6,185 bases of DNA from a virus (Duplodnaviria; Heunggongvirae; Uroviricota; Caudoviricetes): the IMG/VR virus record IMGVR_UViG_648276662_000013; one strand, 5' to 3'. The notes beneath the pieces were generated by a model, which was given only the letters and a program-made list of their open reading frames with translations, ran no database searches and had not been told where the DNA came from. Below are positions 1-6,185 of the stretch, piece by piece. Each line of letters begins with the position of its first letter. Position 1 is the first letter of the stretch. The position numbers were made by a program, and so were the translations under genes.

Positions 1-1194
1 GAGCAGATGCGTAATCTTATTACAGCATTCCCAGAAGAGTTTGAGGAAGTCCGTAAAGGGATGAGTTATGTCGATGATGCTCAAAGGGATGATTATGGCA
101 ATCTGGCGCTCAAAGCACAGGTAGCCTCATCGCTTGGTCAGGGCGCATTTGGCAGGTTCATGATGGATAATGAGCAGGAGATGCGTCGTTTAGGTATCCC
201 TCCAGAAACTATTGCGGAAATGCAGGTTAATGACCCGCAGGGCTTCCAGCATTTCGCAGGTAATCTGGCGCTGTTTTCTCTCGGTCATGAGAAGTATTTC
301 GATATCAAAGATCAAATGGAAGGTCGGGATATTGAGCGTGGCAAGTTGGCAGAGACAATCCGCAGCAATCAGGCTGGCGAAGCACTTCAGGCGAGAGGGC
401 AGGATATTAGCCGAGCAAATGCGTTAACGTCAGCATATGCACCAACAGCAGCAATGCAGAATTACAATCAGTACGCGCAAATGTTAAAGGCGGATCCAGA
501 GGGGGCGGCGGCATTTGCGGCAGCGGCTGGAATTAATACAAACGCCAAAAAATTAATGAGTGTTAGAGAAAACGATGATGGCACTGTCACAAAATACTAC
601 ACAGACGGAAGTGAAGAGCAGGGAAAACTAAACCAGCCAATATCTGGAGATGGGTTTCGTCCAATAGCTTTGCCAACAGCCCAAAAGATCATGGAAAAGT
701 CGCCAGAAGGGGCTAAAAAAGCTGCTGGATTTGCATACAGGGTTAGGGATGCTCTTGATTCAATAGATACACTGAAAGACCAGCTTAGCCCACAGCGAGT
801 GGCGATCATTAATAATGCTTTGGGTAATGGGACGCTGGCTAACTTAACGCTCAGCCCAGCAGAGCAGCAATACGTTGTTAATGCTAATGACGCAATAATG
901 GCAATACTCCGTCAGGAAACAGGGGCATCTATCCTACCAGCTGAAATGTCCAAATATTATCAAATGTATTTCCCTCAGCCTGGTGATTCCACAAAAACCA
1001 TTGATACCAAGCGCCGGAAGATGGAAAACCAGTTCAATTCGCTGAAAGCTGCTTCTGGTCGAACTTATGATGCTTTGCGGGTTATTTCAGCAGTTGACAG
1101 AGGAACTGCTTCTTCGTCGCAGACATTGCCGCAATCTGAGCAGGTATCACAGCCAGCAGCCAGCAGTAACTTTTCTTCACTATGGGGTGATTAA
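1..1194 (+). CDS. 5'-partial hypothetical protein (at least 397 aa in window), hydrophilic with no TM segment and a Ser/Gln-rich C-terminal tail; candidate phage virion/internal (DNA-ejection-type) protein, product is inference only
   Basis: Open frame runs from base 1 with no in-frame stop before the first ATG at 7, so the gene probably starts upstream of the window. Stop TAA 1192-1194 overlaps the next ATG 1194-1196 (TAATG), indicating an operon with translational coupling. ORFs 212..427(+) and 597..809(-) inside it are short shadow ORFs. Confidence 0.8.
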   Translation, partial: EQMRNLITAFPEEFEEVRKGMSYVDDAQRDDYGNLALKAQVASSLGQGAFGRFMMDNEQEMRRLGIPPETIAEMQVNDPQGFQHFAGNLALFSLGHEKYFDIKDQMEGRDIERGKLAETIRSNQAGEALQARGQDISRANALTSAYAPTAAMQNYNQYAQMLKADPEGAAAFAAAAGINTNAKKLMSVRENDDGTVTKYYTDGSEEQGKLNQPISGDGFRPIALPTAQKIMEKSPEGAKKAAGFAYRVRDALDSIDTLKDQLSPQRVAIINNALGNGTLANLTLSPAEQQYVVNANDAIMAILRQETGASILPAEMSKYYQMYFPQPGDSTKTIDTKRRKMENQFNSLKAASGRTYDALRVISAVDRGTASSSQTLPQSEQVSQPAASSNFSSLWGD

Positions 1195-3299
1195 TGGCTA
1201 AAGCATGGAAAGATGTTATCGCCTCTCCACAGTATCAGGCGTTAGCACCAGAACAAAAAGCGCAGGCTCAGGAGCAATACTTCAATGAAGTCGTGGCCCC
1301 GCAAGCCGGAGAAAGTGTAGAGCAGGCTAAGCAGGCTTTTTATGCTGCCTATCCACTACCATCAACGAATGAAATAGACCGATCCCAATCAGCAACTCAA
1401 AATATTCAACATACATCATCTGATAATTCTCTTGCGTCAGGGTATGCAAAGTTAGCTACTCAGCAAAGAGAGGGGCTTGAGCGTTCAGCAGAACAGGGAG
1501 CCAGTCTTGGGGCTGCGATGCGCGATGCTATAACAGGCGAAAGCCGAATGACTCCAGAGATGGAGAGACTGCAAAATGTCGCCTCTGCCCCAGAATTGAA
1601 CTCACTAAGCATGGATGCCCTAAAGGCTGGATGGTCTCAACTTTTCGGCTCTGACGCGTCTCAGGAAAAGATTCTTCAGGGAATGGGGGCGACATTAAGG
1701 CAGGATGAGAAGGGGAATACTATCGTTTCTCTGCCATCAGGTGATTATGCCCTGAACAAGCCGGGTTTATCACCGCAAGACCTGACCTCGTTTCTTGCTA
1801 ATGCGTTGGCGTTTACACCAGCGGGCAGGGCTGGAACGGTGCTTGGTGCCATAGGAAAATCAGCAGCTACAGATTTAGCACTACAGGGAGCCACCAGCCT
1901 TGCTGGTGGAGAAGATATTGATCCGTTACAAACGGTAATTTCTGCTGGCATTGGTGGTATTGGTAAGGGGCTGGAAAATACAGCGAGTGCGGTTTCGAGG
2001 GCTGTTCGTGGTGATATGTCGCCTGAAGCAAAGGCTGCTGTCGACTTTGCATCGGAAAGAAATCTGCCGTTAATGACCAGTGACATGCTGAAAGATAAAA
2101 CCTTTATGCAGAGTCAGGCTCAGACATTAGGCGAAAGAGTTCCTTTTTTTGGAACCGGTAAGAATCGGCTGAATCAACAACAAGCACGAGAAAATTTAGT
2201 CAGAACATTTAGCGATGGTCTGGGTGGCATTTCTGATAAACAGCTTTATGAATCTGCGACTAAAGGGCAACAAAAATTCATTGAGGCAGCAGGAAAGCGA
2301 TATAACCGCATAATTGACGCTATGGGGGATACCCCTGTCGATCTCTCAAACACGGTAAAAGCTATCGACAATCAGATTGCCGTGTTAAGCCGCCCGGGCA
2401 AATCTCAGGATAGAGCCGCGGTAAAAGTCTTGCAGCAATTTAAAGACGATATCACCAGCGGACCAAATGACCTGCGTCTGGCGAGGGAAAACAGAACCGA
2501 TCTTCGAAAGCGATTTATGGCGTCATCTGACACTGTTGATAAAGATACGCTCCAGAAAGCCAGCGATATTATCTACAAGGCATATACGGCGGATATGAAA
2601 AAAGCCGTAGCCAAAAATCTTGGAGCAGACGAAGCCATTAATATGGCAAGGGTTGATCGCTCATGGTCTAAATTCAATGACATGATGGGAAGAACGCGCG
2701 TTCAAAAGGCAATAGCCAGCGGCAAGGCCACGCCTGAGGATGTAACAAAACTCGTTTTTAGCCAAAGCCCATCAGAACGTTCTCAGCTTTACAGGCTTCT
2801 GGATGACAATGGTAGGCAAAACGCACGAGCAGCCATAGTTCAGAATGCTGTAGATAAGGCGACTGATCCGTCTGGAAATATCAGTGTTGAGAAGTTTATT
2901 AATGCGTTACACCGGAACAGGAAGCAATCAGCAACTTTCTTTAAAGGCGTACATGGAAAGGAACTGGACGGCGTTATTAAATACCTCAACGATACAAGAC
3001 ACGCGGCAAAAGCGAACGTTCAAAACTTAAATGGTCAGCAGCTTTATGGATTGTTAGTTGGTGGTGGCATCATAAACGCAGCAGTATTAGCGGGGATGCT
3101 AAAAACGGCTGCGTTTGTTGTTCCTGCTGCTGGTGCCGTAGGCGGAGCAGCGAAGGCATACGAAAGCCCTGTTATACGAAATGCCTTGTTACGTCTGGCA
3201 AATACGCCAAAAGGTAGCACAGCATATGACAGAGCGATCAGTACGGTCACACAATCGCTCACCAGAGTCGCACAGGCATCACAAAAAGAATCTCAATAA
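1194..3299 (+). CDS. 701-aa hypothetical protein: Ala/Gln-rich N-terminus, Gly/Ala-rich middle, C-terminal ~37-residue hydrophobic helical hairpin; candidate membrane-inserting virion/ejection-type protein (function not established)
   Basis: 2.1 kb ORF whose ATG overlaps the upstream stop, with a G-rich SD-like GGGGTG at 1184-1189. Hairpin LYGLLVGGGIINAAVLAGML-KT-AAFVVPAAGAVGGAA is residues 617-653, about nt 3042-3152. Stop TAA 3297-3299 is followed by a hairpin + T-run. Antisense ORFs 1745..2086, 1867..2052 and 3044..3262 are shadows. Confidence 0.85.
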   Translation: MAKAWKDVIASPQYQALAPEQKAQAQEQYFNEVVAPQAGESVEQAKQAFYAAYPLPSTNEIDRSQSATQNIQHTSSDNSLASGYAKLATQQREGLERSAEQGASLGAAMRDAITGESRMTPEMERLQNVASAPELNSLSMDALKAGWSQLFGSDASQEKILQGMGATLRQDEKGNTIVSLPSGDYALNKPGLSPQDLTSFLANALAFTPAGRAGTVLGAIGKSAATDLALQGATSLAGGEDIDPLQTVISAGIGGIGKGLENTASAVSRAVRGDMSPEAKAAVDFASERNLPLMTSDMLKDKTFMQSQAQTLGERVPFFGTGKNRLNQQQARENLVRTFSDGLGGISDKQLYESATKGQQKFIEAAGKRYNRIIDAMGDTPVDLSNTVKAIDNQIAVLSRPGKSQDRAAVKVLQQFKDDITSGPNDLRLARENRTDLRKRFMASSDTVDKDTLQKASDIIYKAYTADMKKAVAKNLGADEAINMARVDRSWSKFNDMMGRTRVQKAIASGKATPEDVTKLVFSQSPSERSQLYRLLDDNGRQNARAAIVQNAVDKATDPSGNISVEKFINALHRNRKQSATFFKGVHGKELDGVIKYLNDTRHAAKANVQNLNGQQLYGLLVGGGIINAAVLAGMLKTAAFVVPAAGAVGGAAKAYESPVIRNALLRLANTPKGSTAYDRAISTVTQSLTRVAQASQKESQ

Positions 3300-3303
3300 C
3301 TGG

Positions 3304-3326
3304 TTAGCCATGGATGGCTAATTTTT
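3304..3326 (+). terminator. Candidate intrinsic terminator of the + strand two-gene operon
   Basis: Perfect inverted repeat TTAGCCAT-GG-ATGGCTAA (3304-3321) followed by TTTTT (3322-3326), starting 5 nt after the stop of the 701-aa gene. Stem is only moderately GC-rich; it overlaps the stop of the convergent minus-strand gene. Confidence 0.5.
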
Positions 3327-3668
3327 GTTCTTTGCTCTCATCCATAGGTAAAGAAGGGAAAGAACAAGACAAAAAACAGAGAATAGATAACCTACCTCAT
3401 ATGGTGCGCCAAAAAAATTAGCTATTGATACGGGCAAAAAAGCTGAAGCGATCAAAATTGAAAGGCAAAAAATAAGCCCAGTAATATAGTTTATTAAATT
3501 CTTAAATGAGAAACGTTTTGCTTGATTTACGGTCTTAACGAACGATCGCTTAACGACGGATAAAAGCAAATAGATGGCGACAGTTGCTAATGCCCCTTTC
3601 CACCAGTCTGGATATAGTTTTGCGACAATCAGACCAAGTAAAACCATGATGACAGCCTGAGCATTCAC
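3318..3668 (-). CDS. Small polytopic membrane protein (about 116 aa from the GTG start, 4 predicted TM helices); candidate superinfection-exclusion/immunity-type accessory protein
   Basis: ORF track gives 3318..3737 (139 aa) from an ATG with no SD. An in-frame GTG at 3666-3668 is preceded by GGGAGG (complement of 3675-3680) with a 6-nt spacer, so it is the more likely start. Four hydrophobic stretches: AQAVIMVLLGLIVAKLY, ALATVAIYLLLSVV, LINYITGLIFCLSILIASAFLPV, VGYLFSVFCLVLSLLYLWM. The 3' two-thirds (about 3320-3560) is visibly AT-rich versus flanks (not computed). A 420-nt stop-free frame in AT-rich DNA is unlikely by chance. Confidence 0.6.
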   Translation of the reverse strand: MNAQAVIMVLLGLIVAKLYPDWWKGALATVAIYLLLSVVKRSFVKTVNQAKRFSFKNLINYITGLIFCLSILIASAFLPVSIANFFGAPYEVGYLFSVFCLVLSLLYLWMRAKNKN

Positions 3669-3783
3669 ACCAACCCTCCCTTTAGCTTTGTTTAGAATGG
3701 CAATCATCATATATCCAAGACATGGCATTTGGTACATAGCTTGGGTCGGGATTTCAAATCCGCTCCCAGTTGATGGGGCCGTT

Positions 3784-3794
3784 ACAGTACGCGC
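3784..3794. repeat. Degenerate copy (core only) of the (CG)n-core motif: ACAGTACGCGC
   Basis: Matches the core of the 3854-3877 motif, same orientation. Confidence 0.35.
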
Positions 3795-3853
3795 ATATCC
3801 GCTTTATGTGAAACAGGAAGATTTTTCTGATATCACTGCCACAGCAAAACACC

Positions 3854-3877
3854 AATTTCGTGACCAGTACGCGCGCG
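3854..3877. repeat. Copy of a ~24-bp motif AATTTCGTGACCAGTACGCGCGCG (alternating purine-pyrimidine CG core)
   Basis: Near-identical to copies at 4141-4163 and 5772-5796. Lies in non-coding DNA. Confidence 0.7.
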
Positions 3878-3885
3878 AGGGGTAT

Positions 3886-3909
3886 CAGTTGCAAAATTTT
3901 TTGCAACTG
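3886..3909. promoter_or_regulatory. Perfect 24-bp palindrome CAGTTGCAAAA-TT-TTTTGCAACTG; candidate dimeric-protein operator or cruciform/hairpin
   Basis: 11-bp arms are exact reverse complements with a 2-bp centre. Sits exactly between motif copies at 3854-3877 and 3915-3930. No U-tract after the stem, so not a canonical terminator. Confidence 0.5.
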
Positions 3910-3914
3910 CGTCC

Positions 3915-3930
3915 GACCAGTACGCACACG
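3915..3930. repeat. Partial copy of the (CG)n-core motif: GACCAGTACGCACACG
   Basis: Core GACCAGTACGC identical to the 3863-3873 part of the full copy; about 52 bp downstream of it, same orientation. Confidence 0.5.
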
Positions 3931-4140
3931 ATGGCGGGGAGCACCATAAAACTGTTCTCTACATAAGACAGAGTGGTGGTGATGTGTTGATTATCGGCGT
4001 ATATGCGCACAGGACGCGCTATGACGATGTTTTATGCGGGTACACTAATCACATGTATCTGGTGTGATAAATCGCGTTACATGACCTCTCATGTTGTGCT
4101 GGTGGTTATCACGACTTTCTGAATCTGGCCTTTGCCTGAT

Positions 4141-4163
4141 ATTTTGCGACAAGTACGCGCGCG
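4141..4163. repeat. Copy of the ~24-bp motif: ATTTTGCGACAAGTACGCGCGCG
   Basis: AAGTACGCGCGCG core plus TTT-GCGAC 5' part, same orientation as other copies. Lies about 30 bp beyond the 3' end of the minus-strand 73-aa gene. Confidence 0.7.
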
Positions 4164-4191
4164 TAGCATCGACAGCATACACATTGGATAT

Positions 4192-4413
4192 TCATTTTGT
4201 GACCAATGCGATAAGTAGCGGGATAAGAATTGATAAAATCAACAGGACGATGATCCACTTTTGATTTTCACTGGCCTTATCTCTATTTTCATCAATCTTA
4301 TCAATAATTCGACGCTCCAAGCCGTGCATATCACCGCGAATGGCAATCATCTCATTGCGAACATCCGAGAAGTGGTTGGCTTGATGTTCAATGTGTGGCG
4401 TTCTGCCTTTCAT
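4192..4413 (-). CDS. 73-aa tail-anchored membrane protein (charged N-terminal ~50 residues, single C-terminal TM WIIVLLILSILIPLLIALV); XhlA-like by recall, or possibly a small holin/toxin-like membrane effector
   Basis: Strong SD GGTGAGGA (complement of about 4422-4429) 6-7 nt upstream of ATG (complement of 4411-4413). Lies 79 bp downstream of, and co-oriented with, the RHH gene. Coiled-coil N-terminus, conserved Trp before a single C-terminal TM resembles the XhlA family (Pfam PF10779) from memory; not verified. Confidence 0.7.
   Translation of the reverse strand: MKGRTPHIEHQANHFSDVRNEMIAIRGDMHGLERRIIDKIDENRDKASENQKWIIVLLILSILIPLLIALVTK
4194..4210. repeat. Degenerate copy of the motif 5' half: ATTTTGTGACCAATGCG
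   Basis: TTTTGTGACCA matches the 5' half of the full motif. About 53 bp downstream of the 4141 copy, mirroring the ~52-bp spacing of the 3854/3915 pair. Overlaps the stop codon of the 73-aa gene. Confidence 0.35.
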
Positions 4414-4492
4414 GCCTGATCCTCACCTATCGTCACCACCTGCTGGTGTATAAAGGTATTGGCCCAAGCAGCTTTCCAATGGGCACTCATGT

Positions 4493-4948
4493 TTATACGC
4501 TGACCTTACAATCAATCACCGCTTTTAACTTTTCAGCATTGCTTCCCTGACGCTTCCACGCGCTGTAAATATCTTTATCCCACGCTTTACCAGCTTTTGT
4601 TTGATAGCCTGCTTCATTGATCCGTTCAGCTATCACACGCCCATTATCAAATCCCTGTTGGATGGTATCGGCAATGATCTTTATAACTGCCGTTTCGTTA
4701 TATGGCTTTGGTGGGATGTTCGGCTTTCCGGCAATAAGCGACGCAGCGGCTTTTTCCATGCGCTCCACCAGCCCAAGCATTCGTGAATCAATAGACTTTT
4801 CCGGCTGTCCCAGCTTCATGCGAATCGCATCAACAAGCCAGGAGGTTTTATCCCCTCCAGAAGCGAGAACAGACCGATTAAACTCATCCTGCAATTCAGA
4901 TGGGATGCGGAACGCGACCAGATTAGATTTGCTCATTGCAAAGACCAT
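4493..4948 (-). CDS. Ribbon-helix-helix (CopG/Arc/MetJ-type) DNA-binding protein with an uncharacterised ~100-aa C-terminal domain; candidate repressor/regulator of the divergent control region
   Basis: N-terminal NLVAFRIPSELQDEFNRSVLASGGDKTSWLVDAIRMKL fits the RHH pattern (beta-strand with alternating hydrophobics, helix A, G-x-T/S turn, helix B). Neither ATG (complement of 4946-4948 or 4934-4936) has a clear SD, so the start is uncertain and could be leaderless. Opposite-strand ORFs 4601..4786 and 4617..5021 are Ser/Cys-rich shadows. Confidence 0.75.
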   Translation of the reverse strand: MVFAMSKSNLVAFRIPSELQDEFNRSVLASGGDKTSWLVDAIRMKLGQPEKSIDSRMLGLVERMEKAAASLIAGKPNIPPKPYNETAVIKIIADTIQQGFDNGRVIAERINEAGYQTKAGKAWDKDIYSAWKRQGSNAEKLKAVIDCKVSV

Positions 4949-4963
4949 ATCAGTGAGTAATAT

Positions 4964-4998
4964 CCATACAGTATACCACTGTATAACACTGTTATACG
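4964..4998. promoter_or_regulatory. Operator-like decamer repeats/palindrome in the divergent promoter region
   Basis: ATACAGT-ATACC-ACTGTAT inverted repeat (4966-4984) plus tandem related decamers CACTGTATAA / CACTGTTATAC (4977-4997), immediately upstream (minus strand) of the RHH gene start. Confidence 0.5.
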
Positions 4999-5050
4999 CT
5001 CAAATATCAGCCAGAAAATAACGGGCCAATCACAAATCTATCGCTGTGTT

Positions 5051-5101
5051 GTTGGTTCAGAGCTGGGCTGTGTTGGTTCAAAATGAGTTGATGTTGGTTC
5101 A
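5051..5101. repeat. Three direct copies of 9-mer GTTGGTTCA at exact 21-bp phasing (iteron-like)
   Basis: Copies at 5051-5059, 5072-5080 and 5093-5101, each preceded by TGTT/GTGTT. The 21-bp spacing is two helical turns. Confidence 0.75.
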
Positions 5102-5144
5102 ATATTTTAGAAAAAACACAATAAAAACAACGCTCTTTACAAAT

Positions 5145-5171
5145 TGAACCAACTGAACCAACTGAACCAAC
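5145..5171. repeat. Three head-to-tail tandem copies of TGAACCAAC, the reverse complement of the 5051-5101 iteron
   Basis: TGAACCAAC x3 at 5145-5153, 5154-5162 and 5163-5171. Separated from the direct copies by a 43-bp AT-rich spacer (5102-5144). Overlaps the -35 region of the rightward gene. Confidence 0.75.
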
Positions 5172-5188
5172 ACCTTTTTGCTTATCTA

Positions 5189-5202
5189 TATAATCTGAGA
5201 GG
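5189..5202 (+). promoter_or_regulatory. Candidate -10 hexamer (TATAAT 5189-5194) and SD (GAGAGG 5197-5202) for the rightward gene
   Basis: Consensus TATAAT, but no good -35 at 17-bp spacing (that position is iteron sequence), suggesting factor dependence. SD is 5 nt before ATG 5208. Assignment is tentative because -10 and SD are almost contiguous. Confidence 0.4.
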
Positions 5203-5207
5203 CAGAA

Positions 5208-5495
5208 ATGATAAGGGACAGGAAAGCTGAAGAGCTGGAGTCAAAAGGGCTATACCGGAGAGCTGCCGCACGATGGGCAGAAGTCATGATGCTGGCAGAT
5301 GGCGATAAAGAACGTGAACATGCAGCAAAAAGACGCTCTGAATGTATCCGTAAGGCGGCACGCCCACCAGCAACTACAGACAGATTCGGAGATTTAAGAC
5401 AGGCAGTTAAGCGGACTCATTCGGCTCTTGGTATGGATGAGGAAGCGAGAGGGTACTTCAGGCGTTATCGCGATAAAGATTGCCAGAGACAGTAA
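5208..5495 (+). CDS. 95-aa basic, helix-rich small regulator; PerC/Pch-family-like transcriptional activator (by recall, unverified)
   Basis: ATG with good SD. N-terminal KAEELESKGLYRRAAARWAEVM resembles, from memory, the conserved core of PerC-family activators (Pfam PF06069). Divergently arranged from the RHH gene across a repeat-rich control region. Confidence 0.7.
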   Translation: MIRDRKAEELESKGLYRRAAARWAEVMMLADGDKEREHAAKRRSECIRKAARPPATTDRFGDLRQAVKRTHSALGMDEEARGYFRRYRDKDCQRQ

Positions 5496-5613
5496 TGCTC
5501 TCTCTCTGTTTTGGCAAATTCCCCCTCACTTTGAAGGGATCGGAGCTATAAAAATGGTGTTATCCGGCTTCCTCAAATTGAGGTTTCCGAAAAAATCAAT
5601 GGGTTAGGTCATC

Positions 5614-5627
5614 GTGCAAATTTGCAC
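5614..5627. promoter_or_regulatory. Perfect 14-bp palindrome GTGCAAATTTGCAC (candidate operator)
   Basis: Exact dyad symmetry in non-coding DNA. Followed 8 nt later by hairpin GCCAACG-CAATTTCT-CGTTGGC (5635-5656). Confidence 0.4.
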
Positions 5628-5771
5628 TCTGCCAGCCAACGCAATTTCTCGTTGGCGAAAATATCAGGTATTTACTGAACGAACGGTCTACCAGTCTATT
5701 CAGTTACCAGTTGCACATGGCTGTTTCATGTGAGAACGGAGGTTTTTTCGGACATCACTATTGGTTACAGC

Positions 5772-5796: not shown

Positions 5797-5880
5797 AGGA
5801 CAACAAGCCTGAACATGGTTACACACCTCGATCGTGAGGGATGTAGACAATGGCTTCTGGCCAAAGCACCCGAAAAAACC

Positions 5881-5902
5881 GTGTACATAAGGGTGTACAT
5901 AA
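5881..5902. repeat. Tandem direct repeat GTGTACATAA-GG-GTGTACATAA
   Basis: Two exact 10-bp copies separated by GG, each containing the palindrome TGTACA, in non-coding DNA. Confidence 0.5.
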
Positions 5903-6020
5903 TCAAAAACCGCATTAGAAATAAACCAGCTACAATGCGGCATTGAAGCCAATACTCTACAAACAGATTCAGAACATTGAATAACTCGTAACGCCAATTC
6001 TTACTTTTCAGCCTTCACAA

Positions 6021-6052
6021 ATGCCGCCCACTCAAACAGAGCGGCATTTTTC
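6021..6052 (+). terminator. Candidate intrinsic terminator-like hairpin + T-run
   Basis: ATGCCGC (6021-6027) pairs with GCGGCAT (6041-6047) around a 13-nt loop, then TTTTTCTT. The loop is long for a canonical terminator, and no upstream + strand gene is obvious. Confidence 0.3.
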
Positions 6053-6185
6053 TTCCCCGCAACTTCAATTCTGTTTTGCGTGCCTGCTCCAGATTTTGCG
6101 ATGTTTTTTTGCCCAGCACACTGAGAACGTGAGATACTCACAACTGTATATAAATGGGTCTTCCCCGATCATGGTGGGAAGACTC

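Follow-up and report, generated by a model that had tools for sequence, protein, structure and literature searches.

Kapi1, a P22-like phage, induces and transduces EcCIMP1, which is a phage-inducible chromosomal island (PICI) of Escherichia coli (Pick, Stadel & Raivio, ISME J 2025, PMC11773190). Helper-dependent excision, replication and packaging have been proven by experiment for EcCIMP1 with phage Kapi1 only, LEE1 expression is repressed by its PerC homologue, and islands of this type add to superinfection immunity through a gene that has not yet been pinned down (PMC11773190). The subject of the present analysis is the right end of an EcCIMP1-like PICI of 16.8 kb in E. coli, a satellite of P22-like helper phages, which is contained in a 6,185-nucleotide stretch of DNA filed as virus record IMGVR_UViG_648276662_000013 (the whole stretch is called the window below). 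Within the window lie two leftward genes: one encodes a DNA-binding protein with a predicted ribbon-helix-helix (RHH) N-terminus, and the other encodes a membrane protein of 73 amino acids (aa). An earlier interpretation made from the letters of the DNA alone (the sequence-only reading) had proposed these two genes as a candidate exclusion, defence or toxin-like module in a phage-like accessory region.

E. coli MS 21-1 matches the window at 100%. In the RefSeq annotation, the genes of the island come in this order: an integrase, a hypothetical protein, an AlpA-like helix-turn-helix (HTH) protein, a second hypothetical protein, an AntA/B antirepressor, DUF4222, ash, a further four hypothetical proteins, a DUF5906 primase-helicase, a few small genes, two ejection-protein genes and then the genes of the window. 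A PICI is recognised by an integrase, an AlpA-type regulator and a primase or replicase, a length of about 10-20 kb, attachment (att) repeats, and the lack of capsid and lysis genes; the RefSeq gene content, the 16.8-kb span between direct repeats of ~25 bp, and the genes and non-coding blocks in common with EcCIMP1 agree with this description. The setting is a satellite island rather than an accessory region of a prophage, and the island itself is a member of an already described PICI family. With EcCIMP1 (locus MP1) it shares AntA/B, DUF4222, ash and several hypothetical proteins at 80-100% identity, as well as ejection-protein genes, PerC, iteron arrays, a non-coding stretch (3743-4172) at 96% identity and the presence of a leftward accessory gene near the right end. 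EcCIMP1 differs in having neither the RHH gene nor the 73-aa gene, the excisionase (Xis)-like alpA_1 being found there in the same orientation; in having a TOPRIM-DUF927 primase; and in lying at a tRNA-Thr site, whereas the window island lies at yicC/dinD.

A second comparison is with the immI region of phage P22, where the rightward gene 16 is followed by the leftward sieA and, farther on, by the leftward orf59a and mnt, which diverge from the rightward arc and ant. In the window, likewise, the gene resembling gene 16 is followed by a leftward membrane gene, a small gene and a leftward RHH repressor gene that faces a divergent regulator gene. In P22, mnt and the small orf59a lie under one terminator, i.e., as an operon of an RHH gene plus a small open reading frame (ORF) such as that of the window, with sieA beyond, and full-length relatives of the 73-aa gene are found in exactly the immI region of P22-like prophages. 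The likeness of the window regulator to Mnt is confined to the RHH motif, as its C-terminus is HTH-like and not a tetramerisation coil. The product of P22 orf59a was considered as a homologue of the 73-aa protein and was rejected, the two being unrelated on comparison.

In the xhlA-xhlB-xlyA lysis cassette of the Bacillus subtilis element PBSX, the membrane protein encoded by xhlA is needed together with the holin XhlB and the endolysin XlyA (PMC5589764). The 73-aa protein has the same architecture, in its small size, its N-terminal coiled coil and its single C-terminal transmembrane (TM) helix; the difference is that no holin or endolysin gene lies beside it, its neighbours being the RHH gene and a non-coding block. 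Finally, accessory and defence hotspots are known in P4-like satellites and P2-like phages (PMC13586616). The window has in common with these a defined slot with conserved flanks and alternative cargo, including AbiD and ImmA/IrrE in sister elements, and differs in that it belongs to another satellite family, its slot is bounded by the 3′ end of the RHH gene, and its present cargo matches no defence model.

Taken together, the results favour, with a fair degree of probability, a core island regulator beside which an XhlA-like phage gene has been captured as cargo, the link between the two genes being one of position and transcription and not that of a dedicated two-component system.

A core regulator beside exchangeable cargo

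Both minus-strand ORFs, of 151 and 73 codons, are present as claimed by the sequence-only reading (Table 1). The true start of the longer one is Met5 (MSKSNLVAF...), as indicated by alignments of 19 and then 38 homologues and by the RefSeq annotation, so that the protein has 147 aa. Its homologues form 355 clusters at 90% identity, from Salmonella, Klebsiella, Enterobacter, Serratia, Pantoea, Erwinia and others, with a typical length of 141-145 aa and 58-79% identity across many genera, and the family is without a Pfam model of its own. A scan of the Enterobacterales, with one genome per species, yielded 48 loci of the RHH gene outside E. coli. In these, the gene lies at the integrase-distal end of an island and is transcribed inward, with the other island genes convergent on it, and the islands contain homologues of the MS 21-1 integrase, the AlpA-like HTH protein, AntA/B, DUF4222, the primase and PerC. 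The RHH gene is a core right-end gene of integrase/AlpA/primase islands across the Enterobacterales.

The distribution of the 73-aa gene is different: none of the 48 loci has a homologue of it. Of 5,426 complete genomes of E. coli, 361 have the RHH gene and 169 have the 73-aa gene, the two being adjacent in 166, i.e., 46% of the RHH-bearing genomes have the small gene and 54% are without it. The gene occupies a slot (slot 2 in Table 1) whose right edge falls within the last 11-15 codons of the RHH gene, as the matches to this gene that many E. coli genomes give start only from nucleotide 34 or 46 of the query. The slot of strain D72 holds a gene for an ImmA/IrrE peptidase and an uncharacterised gene on the opposite strand, and that of strain LS45 holds AbiD, also on the opposite strand; the PADLOC models matched were AbiD (7e-58) and a CapP/RmrA-like ImmA (8e-25), and the RHH allele beside these cargoes is 97-99% identical in nucleotides. 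In an evenly spaced sample of the matches, the three slot alleles made up roughly 47%, 30% and 20%. The cargo that lies beyond the RHH gene in other genera varies and is mostly in convergent orientation, and small membrane proteins were not seen there as general followers of the RHH gene, with the exception of Providencia. In P. huashanensis (locus L037) and P. heimbachae (L038), the RHH gene is followed, at 79-450 nt, by a co-oriented ORF of 123 aa with one C-terminal hydrophobic helix; this ORF is similar in architecture to the 73-aa protein, and homology between the two was undetected. Because of the 48 loci, the E. coli counts and the alternative occupants of the slot, the RHH gene is regarded as core and the 73-aa gene as one of several alternative cargoes.

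Between the two genes, the spacer RNA folds no better than shuffled sequence (z = -0.08), and a scan of the minus strand from 3250 to 5650 found neither a terminator nor a promoter. As the 79-nt spacer thus showed neither a terminator nor any promoter-like site, co-transcription is likely, and the association of the two genes is thus positional and, judging from these features, probably transcriptional as well.

An RHH antitoxin encoded with a small membrane toxin is an established architecture, and the sequence-only reading had taken the pair for a dedicated regulator-effector unit (for abortive infection, superinfection exclusion or a toxin-antitoxin-like function), in which the RHH protein would control or neutralise a membrane-damaging effector. 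The common strand, the 79-bp distance with no terminator between, and the fact that 166 of the 169 E. coli copies of the small gene adjoin the RHH gene speak for such a unit, as does the position of the full-length relative downstream of an RHH gene, mnt, in P22-like prophages. However, the RHH gene lacks the small gene in 48 other species and in more than half of the RHH-bearing E. coli genomes, nearly the same RHH allele stands beside AbiD or ImmA/IrrE in opposite orientation, the phage relatives are paired with another RHH family and translationally coupled to a Zn-ribbon protein, and neither PADLOC nor the toxin families gave a match. As to a type II toxin-antitoxin pair in particular, co-occurrence is not strict and no known toxin family was matched (Pfam, NCBIfam, PADLOC). 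The sequence-only reading had itself named a failure of the two genes to co-occur as a reason to abandon its module, and this is largely what was found, with 0 of 48 loci and with 166 pairs against 361 RHH-bearing genomes. A dedicated unit is improbable, and a core regulator with alternative cargo is preferred.

In the 147-aa protein, a predicted RHH N-terminus of the Arc/Mnt type is followed by a linker helix and by an HTH-like C-terminal domain that is nearly invariant. When the family profile is compared with a 7-sequence Arc/Mnt alignment (hhalign, E=0.002, with a probability of only 13%), residues 1-42 match the strand, helix, Gly-turn and helix of Arc/Mnt in register, and P22 Arc alone against the family profile gives E=0.0074. 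No RHH family of Pfam was matched at E<=1 by the window protein or by any of the 38 relatives; the RHH-related library matches are limited to phrog_30270 (E=3e-4, function unassigned) and to one source name, ‘Arc-like DNA binding domain protein’. Among PDB sequences, the family profile retrieved just a chance match, to a designed protein (E=0.89); the 151-aa protein had no tblastn match in the phage collection; neither of the two proteins reached a threshold in the scans of Pfam, NCBIfam and PADLOC; and no conserved divergent partner gene of the RHH gene was found when sought in other genera. The RHH N-terminus of the sequence-only reading thus stands as an in-register alignment and falls short in probability and of the Pfam threshold, whereas the extra C-terminal domain that it had described is borne out as a folded one: the AlphaFold2 (AF2) model has a four-helix, HTH-like domain at about residues 77-145, with a predicted local distance difference test (pLDDT) score of about 90. 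This domain is the best conserved part of the protein in the alignment of homologues, and matches recombinase-type HTH models below threshold (HTH_62 in 34 of 38 members, Recombinase in 21 of 38). As a putative RHH repressor to which an HTH-like domain has been added, the regulator is new and uncharacterised.

Upstream of the RHH gene are three tandem 10-bp repeats, which overlap a putative -10 element (TATACT on the minus strand). In 41 sequences, such tandem repeats lie at a constant position, -60/-51 from the start codon, over a -10-like hexamer. In 40 of the 41, the type of repeat goes with the residues of the predicted DNA-binding strand: strand SNL[VI]AFR is found with TATAAC/GTTATA repeats and strand S[LI]SVTFR with GTCTTAC repeats, i.e., residues N5/L6/A8 with GTATAACA-type repeats versus L5/S6/T8 with TGTCTTACA-type repeats. 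By inspection, the promoter region contains no LexA box (CTGT-N8-ACAG). Because the conserved repeats overlap a promoter-like -10 at a constant distance from the start codon, autoregulation is suggested, and the repeat type that tracks the β-strand residues would be the pattern of an autoregulating RHH repressor.

Another view is that the 147-aa protein serves chiefly in recombination or at the att site, as an excisionase-like or architectural accessory factor, and less as a transcriptional repressor, with the small gene as an unrelated passenger: the RHH gene is the last gene before the island end in most loci, the weak HTH matches are of the recombinase type, and the Xis-like alpA_1 has the same position and orientation in EcCIMP1. 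This is very unlikely, as the conserved repeats over a promoter-like -10 at a constant distance from the start are typical of autoregulation, and as about 900 bp and the PerC gene separate the RHH gene from the att repeat in E. coli. An autoregulating core regulator is the reading retained here.

A shortened phage gene in the cargo slot

The description of the small protein as coiled-coil-like, with a single C-terminal TM helix and a strong Shine-Dalgarno sequence, was correct. In the AF2 model, residues 7-72 form one continuous helix (pLDDT 82), and the sole hydrophobic stretch, W53-V71, is followed by two residues only, making the protein tail-anchored. Upstream of the gene is the Shine-Dalgarno sequence GGTGAGGA, which is derived from the Gly-run codons of the full-length relatives. 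The sequence-only reading had been unable to match this protein; a family has now been found, and the XhlA lead that it had given was a good one. The 73-aa protein matches phrog_6324 (function unassigned) at 1.4e-10, as do 19 of the 19 aligned family members. Of these, 17 match PF10779 (XhlA) below its gathering score of 34.7 bits, the best at E 1e-5, and 14 match phrog_689 ‘holin’ and 14 phrog_1193 ‘hemolysin’; for phrog_689, the window protein gives E=0.03 versus 2e-7 for a full-length relative. A follow-up profile search yielded many homologues with precomputed PF10779 matches and with the PGAP name ‘hemolysin XhlA family protein’. The link of the window copy to XhlA is thus transitive, by way of its relatives. 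No significant match to toxin, holin or defence models was obtained for the 73-aa protein (Pfam, NCBIfam, PADLOC, phrog), known defence families (PADLOC-DB v2) matched at E<=1 numbered zero for both proteins, and, as regards holins, the 73-aa protein has no charged tail, ending two residues past the TM helix. The small protein is classed here as a divergent and shortened XhlA-family protein, found outside a lysis setting.

Clusters numbered 24 in a word-indexed search, all of them from E. coli, and 41 in a full HMMER scan of 1.84 billion representatives. In the distant members, of 100-130 aa, a variable N-terminus is followed by a Gly run, a coiled coil and a common C-terminal TM helix (...KWxIxLIISSILVPLLIALVTK); the full-length phage protein has 111-117 aa. 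With the 73-aa protein as the query, tblastn against the phage collection gave just three weak matches to Klebsiella phages until a full-length relative was used. The stretch 4194-4451 is 80% identical in nucleotides to a copy in the immI region of a P22-like prophage, and the 73-aa protein begins exactly at the conserved internal Met after the Gly run, whose codons (GGAGGAGG-like) became its Shine-Dalgarno sequence. As the homology extends to 4451, beyond the start codon, and the start is at this conserved internal Met, the 73-aa gene is a 5′-truncated, orphaned form of a phage gene. Most of the aligned full-length XhlA-like proteins, too, have a Met directly behind the Gly run, the codons of which amount to a strong Shine-Dalgarno sequence (window 4405-4425; loci L050 and L056); possibly, this internal start yields a short isoform of the same extent as the 73-aa protein, in a dual-start arrangement.

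The ratio of nonsynonymous to synonymous substitution rates (dN/dS) is 0.15-0.23 relative to the relatives and 0.21 between the two island alleles in which the gene is intact, of 73 aa and 66 aa, with small counts of substitutions; the 73-aa gene is under purifying selection. These values bear on the view that the ORF is a decaying, functionless remnant of a phage gene, hitch-hiking in the island. About 40 N-terminal residues and the Zn-ribbon partner of the full-length relatives are missing, frameshifted or truncated versions occur (P0136, P0138, P0141), and in the word-indexed search the gene was limited to E. coli, all as would be expected of a remnant. Even with few substitutions, however, the selection signal makes this the less likely view, and the gene is intact in about 166 complete genomes, its two alleles have the same new N-terminus, and the strong Shine-Dalgarno sequence has been kept. 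A functionless remnant is accordingly judged quite unlikely, and a truncated but maintained cargo gene is preferred.

The relatives of the gene in phages are found in two settings. In P22-like prophages, the rightward gene 16 is followed by leftward genes for a small membrane ORF, the XhlA-like protein, a Zn-ribbon protein of 121-123 aa and mnt, from which arc, ant and the tailspike gene diverge; in siphovirus prophages and phages, the XhlA-like gene precedes the tape-measure gene and lies in a group of morons (KilA-N, Bro, Arc and antirepressor). Among the enterobacterial relatives examined, none is located in a lysis cassette, the locations being immI or moron regions. The full-length XhlA-like gene overlaps the gene upstream of it by 8 nt and is translationally coupled to it; this upstream gene encodes a Zn-ribbon-like protein of 121-124 aa with two CxxC pairs (L056, 4643-5336; L050, 8999-9716; L059, 4622-5291). 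The two-gene arrangement is conserved in podoviruses of the P22-like kind and in siphoviruses alike, and as a candidate for a genuine module it looks better than the pair of the window.

The main functional rival to interference with phage is a role in the timing of lysis, with the 73-aa protein as an XhlA-type holin accessory or antiholin-like factor by which the island would advance or delay lysis by its helper. The relation of the family to XhlA, to phrog_689 ‘holin’ and to phrog_1193 ‘hemolysin’ agrees with this, as does the need for xhlA together with XhlB and XlyA in PBSX (PMC5589764), and the start at a conserved internal Met after a Shine-Dalgarno-like Gly run recalls dual-start holin/antiholin genes. 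Yet all the matches to lysis families are below curated thresholds, and the enterobacterial relatives examined all lie outside lysis cassettes, near mnt, arc, ant, KilA-N or Bro genes. In P22, the mnt-side cluster is expressed in lysogens, and the leftward mnt-side cluster of P22-like prophages would be an odd place for a lysis protein. A part in lysis timing is therefore unlikely.

Neighbouring features of the island

Table 1. Features of the right end of the island in the window (strand left empty where none applies)
Feature	Position	Strand	Basis or remarks
gp20-like ejection-protein gene	7-1194	+	PF16928, phrog_917, RefSeq; 5′-truncated by window edge
gp16-like ejection-protein gene	1194-3299	+	phrog_770, RefSeq
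Multi-pass inner-membrane protein gene, variable (slot 1)	3318-3737	-	ORF; gene body replaced in sister islands
Conserved non-coding block between the cargo slots	3738-4172		five CAGTACGCGC repeats (3785-4160) and a palindrome
Variable cargo slot (slot 2)	4173-4525		blastn against sister islands: homology ends at 4172 and resumes at 4526 or 4538
Gene for 73-aa tail-anchored membrane protein, 5′-truncated XhlA-like (phrog_6324 / PF10779-related)	4192-4413	-	ORF and family matches
Spacer between the two genes, 79 nt	4414-4492	-	holds GGTGAGGA; 4414-4451 homologous to coding sequence of full-length phage relatives
Gene for RHH-plus-HTH-like DNA-binding protein, 147 aa	4493-4936	-	ORF 4493-4948 (151 aa), true start Met5
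Three tandem 10-bp repeats, inferred operator and promoter of the RHH gene	4968-4997		plus strand ACAGTATACC / ACTGTATAAC / ACTGTTATAC
Iteron array	5050-5172		repeat search: three direct GTTGGTTCA, A-rich spacer, three inverted tandem copies
PerC/ANR-family regulator gene	5208-5495	+	PF06069 at 2.5e-33; divergent from RHH gene
Putative attR, right copy of ~25-bp direct repeat (…CGTGTACATA..GGTGTACATAAT)	5879-5904		partner repeat just upstream of the integrase gene, L001 about 5805-5830

The flanks of the two genes are as the sequence-only reading had described them, with structural genes (gp20/gp16-like) to the left, PerC to the right and a repeat array on either side, of five CAGTACGCGC and six GTTGGTTCA copies, respectively (Table 1). 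The satellite thus has its own P22-type ejection-protein genes, and sister islands (L052, L055) also have gp14- and gp7-like genes.

The non-coding block to the left of slot 2 retains its 96% identity in islands that differ in their primase and in both flanking cargoes, EcCIMP1 included. It contains a perfect palindrome at 3886-3909 with 11-bp arms (CAGTTGCAAAA-TT-TTTTGCAACTG), for which the RNA hairpin has z = -2.9, and no gene is annotated in it. Possibly, the transcript of the RHH and 73-aa genes is terminated within this block. The whole window, scanned at E<=1, gave no Rfam match.

Beyond this block, the slot-1 gene sits where sieA sits in P22. Its product matches no family (Pfam, phrog, PADLOC, NCBIfam) and, read by eye against the published motif, is without the SieA motif FxRYPxEAxxFNK. 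As P22 SieA acts on the C-termini of gp16 and gp20 (PMC10883804), the slot-1 membrane protein, with the ejection proteins of the island as a matched set, is a candidate for the source of the superinfection immunity of EcCIMP1-type islands.

To the right of the RHH gene, the 9-mer of the iteron array is conserved in many genera, whatever the type of RHH operator. The iterons usually occur twice per island, in one cluster beside the RHH gene and another immediately 3′ of the primase gene (L052, 1067-1169; L055, 13296-13403; and many other loci), and identical iterons are found with two primase families, DUF5906 and TOPRIM-DUF927. Such paired clusters resemble the ori/crr pair of P4. The array is probably an origin or crr-like site for the island replicase and not the operator of the RHH protein; the latter was considered and rejected, since the 9-mer occurs with both operator types and the second cluster adjoins the primase gene.

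The ~25-bp direct repeats with GTGTACATA motifs on both flanks of the island are probable att sites. Further GTACAT motifs adjoin the integrase gene and could be arm-type sites. Between the PerC gene and the putative attR, a 52-nt segment (5549-5600) shares 98% identity with a portion of the roi/antirepressor genes in many phages of the lambdoid and P22-like groups. Past the end of the island and directly ahead of an ISL3 element, 192 nt (5964-6155) are 98% identical to two ‘Campylobacter phage’ records, which is probably due to E. coli DNA inside those records.

Proposed mechanism and significance

In a quiescent island, RHH dimers would bind the three 10-bp repeats and hold their own transcription at a steady low level, and the invariant HTH-like C-terminal domain would have a second partner. 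As the spacer has no terminator, transcription from the RHH promoter would read through into the 73-aa gene, resulting in constitutive, low-level synthesis of the small protein in cells that carry the island. Its C-terminal helix would insert in the inner membrane with the coiled coil in the cytoplasm, where the protein would interfere with an incoming or resident phage at the membrane, at the step of DNA entry or in the timing of lysis. This last step is proposed because AbiD occupies the same slot, the relatives lie on the mnt/sieA side of immI, and islands of the EcCIMP1 type add to superinfection immunity; a role in exclusion or interference is plausible from position only.

Several points weigh against the proposed combination of a core autoregulated repressor and a captured XhlA-like cargo gene. 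As regards the regulator, the RHH assignment is below every curated threshold, and the AF2 monomer has the strand region drawn as a helix at low confidence; a weak N-terminus is, however, expected for the monomer of an obligate dimer fold, in which the intermolecular sheet cannot form. The pairing of strand and repeat types follows two clades and therefore represents very few independent events. As regards the cargo, the adjacency to the RHH gene of all but three E. coli copies leaves a functional link conceivable; the window copy itself does not match PF10779 at E<=1, only its relatives doing so; and without the N-terminal region and the Zn-ribbon partner of the full-length members it may act differently or weakly. 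EcCIMP1, moreover, is without the 73-aa gene despite the superinfection immunity of its island type. RHH binding, co-transcription and the phage phenotype are all inferred.

As a whole, the observations of the sequence-only reading were confirmed and its interpretation was partly supported: an exclusion or defence role of the small protein is still reasonable, since AbiD occupies the same slot in sister islands, and no known defence, toxin or holin model matches the protein significantly. The findings can be accommodated without any new kind of system, and the two genes of the ‘module’ do not make up a unit. The proposal of a two-gene defence system is thus not upheld, which spares the effort of cloning the pair.

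What emerges in its place is an uncharacterised family of RHH-plus-HTH regulators that marks the right end of PICI-like islands in the Enterobacterales, with a predicted operator code of two strand types and two repeat types. The cargo slot of EcCIMP1-like islands, in which AbiD, ImmA/IrrE and XhlA-like genes alternate, is a natural place to seek anti-phage functions. Possibly, though this is doubtful, the enterobacterial XhlA-like tail-anchored proteins are undescribed membrane factors of prophages and satellites that block P22-type phages at the inner membrane, at the conduit formed by the ejection proteins or at the triggering of the holin, with the PICI expressing a minimal 73-aa core of coiled coil and TM helix from the autoregulated RHH promoter; if so, an XhlA-like exclusion class could help to explain the ‘superinfection immunity’ reported for EcCIMP1-like islands. 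For the enterobacterial XhlA-like proteins, a first context has been obtained: they belong to immunity and moron regions and not to lysis cassettes, and therefore they may act in exclusion rather than in lysis.

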